A DNA stretch of 5,281 bases, from the IMG/VR virus record IMGVR_UViG_2548876700_000007. One strand, written 5' to 3'. The translations under genes were made by a program, and so were the position numbers. This stretch comes from a virus. Taxonomy: Duplodnaviria > Heunggongvirae > Uroviricota > Caudoviricetes. Shown here in pieces: positions 2,063 to 2,754 of the stretch; within the stretch, counting starts at the first letter, position 1; each line of letters begins with the position of its first letter. Under the pieces are notes generated by a model, which was not told the DNA's origin, searched no databases, and was given only the letters and a program-made list of their open reading frames with translations.

Positions 2063-2754
2063 AGTACCGCCTCCTGAAAATTACCCTGATAGAAAGCCAG
2101 TACACGCTGCATAGCTTCACTCTTCCGGCACTCGCGACAGATTATGTTTAGGCGCCTGTCGTAGCGGCGTATTTCGCCGTCTGGTAACGACCAGATAAAA
2201 TCCTGTTCAGCCGTCTGCATGTCCGGTTGCGAAGCTTCCGGACGAGAAGTGTTTTTATTCTCTGTAGTAATCTCTGTTGTATTCTCTGTAAGATCATCGG
2301 GCCATTTTGACCCGATGACATTGGGTCGTTTTGAACCAATGGAGCGTGTCATTTTGGTCTCTTCCATCGTGTCATTTTGACCTGATGGAGCGGCGCATTT
2401 TGACCTGATGGATTCGCTCACTTTGCCACCATCTAAAAGCTCGCTCTCGTAATTAATCGTGTAAAAATTAGTCATATCACGCTTTGATTTGTTGAGCTTT
2501 TCGCAACGCAAAAGCCCCAGCGTTTTCAGACTTGCAAATGCGCGTTTTAACGTTGACTCTGACCAGAACGGGAACTGTTCCAGCCATTGTTCTGTTGTGT
2601 TATAAATCCAGCGAACACCATCACATTCCATGCCGGAACCGGTATCTCTCAACCAGTAATGCAGCTGCTGCAACACGATGGCTTCGTTCAGACCAATTTT
2701 CATCGCCAGCTGCGTGTTTATAACCAGCGGGCGTTCAGCAAAAAGGAGCTTCAT
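2059..2754 (-). CDS. replication initiation protein, lambda O-like (231 aa), origin embedded in coding sequence
   Basis: Seen: ATG 2754..2752 preceded by a G-rich SD (GGAGGGG). N-terminal domain (LVINTQLAMKIGLNEAIVLQQLHYWL...LKRAFASLKTLGLL) resembles winged-helix phage replication-initiator N-domains as I recall them (established knowledge, unverified). The central low-complexity linker coincides with five tandem ~23-bp repeats and an AT-rich tract, as in lambda ori inside gene O. Confidence 0.8.
   Translation of the reverse strand: MKLLFAERPLVINTQLAMKIGLNEAIVLQQLHYWLRDTGSGMECDGVRWIYNTTEQWLEQFPFWSESTLKRAFASLKTLGLLRCEKLNKSKRDMTNFYTINYESELLDGGKVSESIRSKCAAPSGQNDTMEETKMTRSIGSKRPNVIGSKWPDDLTENTTEITTENKNTSRPEASQPDMQTAEQDFIWSLPDGEIRRYDRRLNIICRECRKSEAMQRVLAFYQGNFQEAVL
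2248..2290. other. AT-rich tract with three tctctgt repeats flanking the iterons (candidate DNA-unwinding element)
   Basis: Seen: gtttttattctctgtagtaatctctgttgtattctctgta, with tctctgt at 2260, 2271 and 2284 (~12-bp period), immediately beside the iteron array on the side expected from lambda ori organisation (inference from established knowledge). Confidence 0.45.
2303..2412. repeat. iteron array (5 direct repeats, ~23-bp period) - putative replication origin
   Basis: Seen: 17-mers starting at 2303 (cattttgacccgatgac), 2327 (cgttttgaaccaatgga), 2350 (cattttggtctcttcca), 2373 and 2396 (both cattttgacctgatgga). Spacing is 24, 23, 23, 23 bp. The first repeat lies within an inverted repeat tcatcggg...cccgatga. 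Confidence 0.7.

Follow-up and report, generated by a model that had tools for sequence, protein, structure and literature searches.

A probable theta origin within the O-like initiator gene of a Qin-like lambdoid prophage, probably orphaned by a deletion

Origins inside initiator genes and the layout of the present locus

The location of a replication origin within the gene of its own initiator is textbook knowledge for phage lambda, whose O protein recruits the P-DnaB complex through its C-terminal domain. The present study deals with a comparable arrangement in a stretch of 5,281 nucleotides (IMG/VR record IMGVR_UViG_2548876700_000007; the whole stretch, hereafter the window, is the contig AIAD01000115.1 in reversed orientation), in which a cluster of repeats at positions 2221-2433 lies inside an O-like gene read from the minus strand. 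We consider it highly probable that this cluster is the cis-acting theta origin of a Qin-like lambdoid prophage, situated in the part of the gene that encodes the interdomain linker of the initiator and orphaned in this contig by a deletion. A preliminary description of the window had already proposed an origin composed of iterons and an AT-rich tract inside an O-like initiator gene, and the comparative data support that proposal, with 64 of 77 homologous loci sharing the architecture.

In its layout, the locus resembles ori-lambda as found in lambda, 434, 933W, and P27. The origin lies in the middle of the gene, between the parts encoding the N-terminal domain (residues 1-110) and the C-terminal domain (residues 147-294 in the intact homologue of Escherichia coli O55:H7 CB9615), and it contains several dyad-symmetric iterons with an A-rich center, with ATCCCTCAAAACGAGGGA in lambda and the consensus CATCGGGTCAAAATGACCCGATG here. 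The iterons are spaced by 20-24 bp (20, 24, and 23 bp in lambda) and start at nucleotide 349 of lambda O and at nucleotide 345 of the present gene; on their C-terminal side they are followed by an AT-rich tract, here a predicted site of unwinding, and then by an inverted repeat. Moreover, residues 147-294 of the intact CB9615 protein (321 amino acids; gene at NC_013941 2001250-2002215; PHROG 391, "replication initiation O-like", E 1e-96) are homologous to the C-terminal domain of lambda O (34% identity, E 6e-27). The likeness to lambda O drawn in the preliminary description holds for the layout and for this C-terminal domain, but it does not extend to the DNA-binding domain, which belongs to another family: PF04492 (Phage_rep_O), which recovered lambda O itself at 5.7e-36, gave no match at E values up to 1 to either the window protein or its intact CB9615 counterpart. 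Further differences concern the number of iterons (five or six instead of the four of lambda), the AT-rich tract, which is a sequence-conserved array of 12-bp units rather than a generic A-rich run, and the truncation of the window gene, which is left without a C-terminal domain. In addition, the annotations of the relatives considered (CB9615, O17_K12a, 689R5, and mEp460) show no P-type loader next to the O-like gene, the downstream gene being DUF977 (Ren-like) or LygF, and the intact initiator ends in a DnaT-like tail. The window element shares the architecture of ori-lambda, then, and lacks a lambda-type N-terminal domain, an intact C-terminal domain, and a partner loader. Six iterons have been described for the origins of Stx phages (PMC7466680).

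Among other systems, the Gram-positive RepA_N plasmid initiators (4pta, the initiator of a staphylococcal multiresistance plasmid) serve plasmid replicons rather than phages, and no Pfam RepA_N match was obtained here at E values up to 1; to our knowledge, neither the iteron sequence nor the 12-bp array is known from RepA_N plasmids. Within the DnaD-like or replisome organizer initiators of Firmicutes phages, protein PFS2_044 of Staphylococcus phage fPfSau02 shares the N-terminal domain (47% identity over 131 amino acids, E 1e-33), and within its gene three GGTCAAAATGAC iterons, 22-23 bp apart, precede units of the CAGAGACTA type. The corresponding segment of this S. aureus phage (L011 1501-1565) is 85% identical in nucleotide sequence to the window iterons at 2345-2410, which indicates that initiator and iteron specificity are shared across phyla; in contrast, its C-terminal domain is of the DnaD/DnaB_2 type (PF07261), whereas that of the intact E. 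coli relative is lambda-O-like. The studied paradigm SPP1 G38P/oriL differs in having an N-terminal domain of family PF09681, for which no match was found here. Iteron plasmids and related origins with 13-mer unwinding elements (RK2, pPS10, and oriC-like DNA-unwinding elements) also place an iteron cluster beside a short tandem array of AT-rich 11-13-bp units, the predicted melting site; however, the unit sequence is unrelated, the present origin lies inside a coding region, and no DnaA-box or IHF consensus sites were found in the window.

The best home for the element is a family of mostly uncharacterised winged-helix initiators with internal origins (PHROGs 391, 6493, 428, and 9773) from phages of Gram-negative and Gram-positive bacteria, whose hallmark, CAGAGAYTAC units of 11-12 bp repeated in tandem immediately 3' of the iterons, is present in the window as three units. 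We found no paper on this origin type, and a survey of Stx-phage replication regions reported that nothing is known about the replication proteins of non-lambda types (PMC8951638). Literature searches with the DNA motifs of the array and with peptides such as TEITTE returned nothing relevant, and those on replisome-organizer iterons, initiator-solo modules, and RepA_N returned background only. The basic finding is an expected one, while the conserved array, the recognition code, and the mimicry of DnaT described below could be new.

Iterons, 12-mer array, and their conservation as DNA

Together with the array, the six iteron positions, all on the minus strand, occupy nucleotides 322-501 of the open reading frame (ORF) 2059-2754, and successive iterons are spaced by 23, 23, 23, 23, and 24 bp. 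Iteron I0 (2411-2433, GATGGTGGCAAAGTGAGCGAATC) is degenerate, matching the consensus at 14 of 23 positions in a 23-bp register with I1; the homologues of Klebsiella and mEp460_4F5 have a good iteron at the equivalent place. I1 (2388-2410, CATCAGGTCAAAATGCGCCGCTC), which starts at nucleotide 345 of the gene, combines a good left half-site with a degenerate right half; I2 (2365-2387, CATCAGGTCAAAATGACACGATG) is dyad-symmetric and matches at 21 of 23 positions; I3 (2342-2364, GAAGAGACCAAAATGACACGCTC) has a good right half-site; I4 (2319-2341, CATTGGTTCAAAACGACCCAATG) is a dyad-symmetric inverted repeat; and I5 (2295-2317, CATCGGGTCAAAATGGCCCGATG) is the best dyad, with 22 of 23 consensus positions. 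The five direct repeats of ~23 bp announced in the preliminary description were confirmed by repeat finders, which recovered I1, I2, I4, and I5 as 23-nt copies spaced by 23/24 or 46/47 nt, with I3 joining them through a family of 12-nt cores, and by Tandem Repeats Finder (TRF), which reported a period of 23 at 2372-2425; the two identical copies of cattttgacctgatgga are present as well. With up to two mismatches, the core GGTCAAAATGAC occurs five times in the window, always on the minus strand between 2301 and 2405, against an expectation of 0.64 from shuffled sequences, and none of 200 shuffles reached five occurrences.

The well-preserved iterons are dyads of about 9-5-9, as is ATCCCTCAAAACGAGGGA in lambda, and 16-18 of the 23 positions of I2, I4, and I5 are self-complementary. 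The inverted repeat noticed earlier around the first iteron does not set that copy apart, every well-preserved iteron being a dyad. Because the period is 23 bp and not 24, the core is read in three frames, giving SKC in I1, GQND in I2, KMT in I3, and SKR or SKW in I4 and I5. The suggestion that constraint on the DNA shapes the linker peptide is borne out by this period and by the use of three frames, whereas the repetitive linker peptide itself was only partly recovered, with an SKx type from I1, I4, and I5 and TENTTEITTEN from the 12-mers, but not from I2 and I3.

The adjacent AT-rich tract (2248-2294) has a GC content of 30%, compared with 47% for the gene, and carries three tandem 12-bp units on the minus strand at 2254-2289, namely ACAGAGAATACA, ACAGAGATTACT, and ACAGAGAATAAA, which are proposed to form the DNA-unwinding element. 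With at most one mismatch, ACAGAGAWTACW was found three times in the window, all at 2254-2289 (0.09 expected), and TRF detected a period of 12 at 2259-2290, in agreement with the 12-bp periodicity noted earlier. The least stable 36-bp duplex of the ORF is 2252-2287. On the far side of the tract, the inverted repeat GTCCGG-N11-CCGGAC (2221-2243), which contains a GAAGCTTC palindrome, stands where ori-lambda has its right-hand inverted repeat; at this place, alignments read by eye show GGTTGC..GCAACC, GGTTCC..GGAACC, or GGTTTC..GAAACC in homologues. As a separate observation, the sole GATC of the ORF, at 2292-2295, sits between the last iteron and the first 12-mer, and this junction (GATCTTACAGAGA) recurs in several distant homologues (Providencia phage, L109, L113, L116).

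A protein-guided scan of IMG/VR gave only near-identical E. coli relatives, and for this reason homologues were collected with the N-terminal 110 residues from a one-genome-per-species collection, which provided 77 usable loci spanning Enterobacterales, Pseudomonas, Acinetobacter, Gilliamella, Desulfuromonas, Hydrogenimonas, Taibaiella, Bacillus and its relatives, Staphylococcus, and Lachnospiraceae. In 64 of these loci, the best autocorrelation lag of the segment located 310-470 nt into the gene was 21-25 or 44-48 nt, and the mean identity at the best lag was 0.47 in this origin segment, whereas coding segments on either side averaged 0.35. Of the 77 loci, 56 had three or more phased CANNNTG cores, and dyad complementarity reached 62% at positions ±4, 69% at ±6, and 80% at ±10, compared with ~25% in control cores. 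The complementary pairs were of several types (85 T/A, 74 G/C, and 11 A/T), indicating compensatory change in the dyad arms, for which GGTCA..TGACC, GGGCA..TGCCC, GGACA..TGTCC, and GTGCA..TGCAC were recorded as variants among homologues. The repeats are constrained as DNA and not as a protein repeat.

The 12-mer array is conserved across phyla. The origin segments of the 77 loci, 23 kb in all, contain 135 copies of the motif AGAGAHTAC, and the other 466 kb contain three, an enrichment of about 1000-fold, and at least one unit was found at the equivalent place in 60 of the 77 loci. Codon usage within the encoded TE(I/N/T)T peptides is nearly fixed, with GAG and GAA used for glutamate at 136:3 (741:889 elsewhere in the ORFs) and ACA+ACT versus ACC+ACG for threonine at 273:5 (613:709 elsewhere). 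The frame analysis further revealed five loci in which one gene reads the unit both as RDY and as TET(T), because one unit spacing is 11 bp. Among 33 representative homologues, about half likewise have the least stable duplex of the gene in the array. When IMG/VR was scanned for exact matches to two units side by side, at least 120 loci were returned, with the array at a median of 470 nt into the ORF (0.54 of its length), and an iterated profile of the first 115 residues recognized a homologous N-terminal domain in 109 of the 113 ORFs found via the array alone. A narrow hidden Markov model that missed 59 of 111 loci had suggested that the array also accompanies unrelated N-terminal domains, a notion ruled out by the iterated profile; judging from the profile matches, the N-terminal domains of array-bearing ORFs are divergent members of one superfamily. 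The iterons that precede the array vary widely among the IMG/VR loci, and the C-terminal parts of the ORFs fall into at least 32 clusters, of which Pfam covers only some, the PHROG names of the proteins being replication initiation, O-like, or DnaD-like loader.

The array would act as the unwinding element, and its conservation exceeds what AT-richness alone would require. We put forward, tentatively and as a possibility we rate below even odds, that the CAGAGAYTAC array (tandem units of 11-12 bp) is a sequence-specific origin element beyond a generic AT-rich tract, common to a very large superfamily of phage initiators. Such an element may be found in Proteobacteria, Firmicutes, Bacteroidota, and Campylobacterota and may stay constant whatever the iteron specificity or the C-terminal domain; it may be recognized by a conserved surface of the winged helix (e.g., once melting has made it single-stranded) or by some universal component of the replisome. 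No description of the array as a sequence-specific element was found in the literature.

The N-terminal domain (codons 1-110, 2425-2754, minus strand) has no family in Pfam or NCBIfam, and a profile search of PDB sequences with it returned noise only. The window protein matched PHROG 6493 ("DnaD-like helicase loader", E 6e-38) and PHROG 391 (E 1.5e-24), and it carries the signature LNEAIVLQQ..YW..W..QFPFWS..T.KR that is invariant in the alignments. An AlphaFold2 model of the domain (predicted local distance difference test score, 86) has a winged-helix fold with a helix at residues 66-78 (nucleotides 2521-2559), the predicted recognition helix; the closest solved folds were those of replication initiators, and in the model the domain resembles the N-terminal domains of RepA_N and DnaD proteins. 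Among the 65 loci with phased cores, residue 67, a serine in the window protein, covaries with the iteron arm base at -4: serine goes with T (about 36 loci, with two glutamate exceptions), aspartate with G (20 of 20), lysine with A (5 of 5), and arginine with C (three loci), and these pairings reappear in unrelated host clades. This covariation suggests that the N-terminal domain of the initiator reads the iterons. If the array is indeed sequence-specific, the array and the residue-67 code (S/D/K/R versus T/G/A/C at arm position -4) would constitute a predictive grammar for phage origins and their specificity from sequence.

Deletion fusion and fate of the origin

The window matches the Qin-like prophage adjoining rspB of E. 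coli O55:H7 CB9615 at 100% identity, with the exception of one deletion and of the last 53 bases (CB9615 locus L002 6001-8198 corresponds to window 1-2198, and L002 8933-11964 to window 2197-5228). The deletion removed 734 bp, including 408 nt from the 3' end of the O-like gene and 286 nt from the 5' end of the DUF977 (Ren-like) gene, and its junction at 2197-2198, with a 2-bp TT microhomology, joins codon 186 of the O-like gene in frame to the last 45 codons of DUF977. The resulting ORF of 231 amino acids, O(1-186)::DUF977 (2059-2754, minus strand), has a DUF977-derived 3' part at 2059-2198 on the same strand (Pfam DUF977, residues 180-227, E 1.4e-12; also PHROG 142). The fusion protein is identical in at least four independent assemblies, which indicates that the deletion is natural; an assembly artefact was ruled out on the same grounds. 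The origin DNA is complete and 100% identical to that of CB9615, the deletion beginning 23 bp past the inverted repeat, and what was lost is the whole lambda-O-like C-terminal domain together with the DnaT-like tail. The gene singled out in the preliminary description as the initiator gene is accordingly one only as regards O residues 1-186, and as a fusion without the C-terminal domain it would not supply a competent initiator in cis.

The last 17 residues of the intact initiator, VNHISEPDTEIPPGFRG, encoded at CB9615 L002 8525-8575 and deleted in the window, almost reproduce the C-terminal end of DnaT from E. coli, VNTVSEPDSQIPPGFRG (dnaT of E. coli K-12, L177 2979-3029). This tail may be a way for phages without a loader to recruit the host primosome; the literature on such a tail yielded general primosome background only. 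A P-x-GFR(G/S) ending was also observed in O-like proteins with unrelated middle domains, namely those of the O17_K12a/689R5 type and of Klebsiella ST147-VIM1phi7.2, Pantoea AH07, and mEp460_4F5. Besides, O17_K12a (L003 5560-6630) and phage 689R5 (L001 6292-7362), otherwise close relatives, carry at the equal position an O-like gene with an unrelated N-terminal part and the same DnaT-like tail, a difference that looks like module swapping with the joint inside or next to the origin.

By analogy with lambda and with the described layout of the lambda and Stx origins (PMC7466680), and in view of the covariation, dimers of the N-terminal winged helix of intact relatives would bind the five or six dyad iterons 23 bp apart and form a wrapped nucleoprotein complex, which would melt the adjacent array of 12-bp ACAGAGAWTACW units, and the C-terminal lambda-O-like domain and the DnaT-like tail would then bring in the DnaB/DnaC primosome of the host. 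The fusion protein of the window should bind the iterons and should not start replication, given that the deletion joined initiator residues 1-186 to the C-terminus of DUF977. Most likely, therefore, the origin is an orphan in this contig and would stay silent as long as no intact initiator with matching specificity acts on it in trans. Initiators of that kind are common, given the 1863 of 5426 complete E. coli genomes that carry this origin type.

Other explanations were weighed against this one. The repeats could simply reflect a repetitive protein linker that arose by a recent in-frame duplication and has no function as DNA, and in favor of this I4 and I5, spaced by 24 bp, encode the repeated SIGSKRP/VIGSKWP, as the 12-mers encode TENTTEITTEN. 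However, four of the five spacings are 23 bp, which places one DNA core in three frames, the dyads show compensatory changes, and the bases of their arms vary together with one residue in the DNA-binding domain, while the synonymous sites of the 12-mer are nearly invariant across phyla and the same unit encodes RDY in certain genes and TET(T) in others. Both the linker-only and the recent-duplication accounts were rejected on the three-frame core and the fixed synonymous codons, and the unconserved duplication that the preliminary description had named as fatal to its own proposal is excluded by the period, the frames, and the 64 of 77 loci from many phyla; such an origin of the repeats is exceedingly improbable. 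The sites bound by the N-terminal domain could instead be mainly regulatory or competitive, serving autoregulation, copy control, or superinfection exclusion by titration of the initiator rather than the start of replication, and in this contig an origin accompanied by a fragment that only binds DNA could be kept for the exclusion of phages of the same type. Two papers report that ectopic copies of ori-lambda comprising iterons and the AT-rich region inhibit cognate phages (PMC3349717, PMC4488673); the in-frame fusion, moreover, retains the DNA-binding domain and the whole origin and recurs in several assemblies, and cognate phages are common, the origin type being carried by 1863 of 5426 complete E. 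coli genomes. On the other side, the order of iterons, 12-mer array, and inverted repeat and their interdomain position match ori-lambda, no part of the gene melts more readily than the array, clonal descent may be enough to account for the recurrence of the fusion, and the O-like gene belongs to the early-right operon, beside a cI-like repressor gene, so that, from the gene order, it is presumably repressed in the lysogen. By analogy with those ectopic copies, a role in titration or exclusion is conceivable but speculative here, and as the main function of the sites we regard it as unlikely.

It is also conceivable that the origin is still active, either through a working O(1-186)::DUF977 fusion or through an intact initiator of the same specificity provided in trans by another prophage. 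The complete identity of the origin DNA with that of CB9615, the preserved frame of the fusion, and the occurrence of up to four copies of this O/ori type in some genomes speak for such activity, whereas the entire lambda-O-like C-terminal domain, the counterpart of the part of lambda O that recruits P-DnaB, and the DnaT-like tail have been deleted and the 45 DUF977 residues have no known role in replication; we judge continued activity slightly less likely still than a mainly regulatory role. Returning to the reading of the cluster as an orphaned theta origin, several points weigh against it. The AT-rich tract is only moderately AT-rich (30% GC, compared with 22% in lambda) and ranks 122nd among the 5246 36-mers of the window for instability, I3 and I0 match the consensus poorly and may not be bound, and the homologue counts given above are not phylogenetically independent. 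Furthermore, the inactivity of the truncated protein is deduced by analogy from the domain organization of lambda O, and the DUF977 tail might confer something, while for initiators of this type no paper was found on binding, unwinding, or autonomous replication.

Genomic setting and significance

The window corresponds to the part of a lambdoid prophage that holds its immunity and early-right genes. At 3508-4182, on the plus strand, lies the gene of a cI-like repressor of the LexA/S24 type, and a P22-Cro-like gene (3201-3416) and a gene in the YdaT/cII position (2779-3204) lie on the minus strand ahead of the fusion ORF, the order cI-like, cro, ydaT/cII-like, and O-like being typical of a lambdoid early-right operon. 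Palindromes of the GTAAC-N4-GTTAC type (GTAACAATAGTTAC, GTAACATTGATTAC, GGTAACTCTTGTTACC) were observed in the intergenic region between cro and cI (3440-3500) and again downstream of cI (4235-4275), and, judging from the sequence, they resemble the operator sets OR and OL that belong to this immunity type. At the contig end, positions 5229-5281, the 53 bases mentioned above, differ from CB9615, giving the minus-strand ORF 4715-5206 another N-terminus than that of the CB9615 gene (L002 11451-11966), which probably marks a mosaic boundary or another rearrangement. An Rfam scan of the window gave no matches, and a scan for promoters and terminators yielded nothing useful near the origin.

Overall, the finding would identify the cis-acting origin of a replication module that roughly one in three complete E. 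coli genomes carries, as do phages such as mEp460, and the defined break in this strain lineage bears on the question of whether amplification or induction of the prophage is still possible. Moreover, the comparative data yield testable rules, namely a specificity code for iterons based on a single residue and the 12-mer array as a possible general signature of phage origins, while the copying of the DnaT tail suggests how phages without a loader ("initiator-solo" phages) may recruit the helicase of their host.

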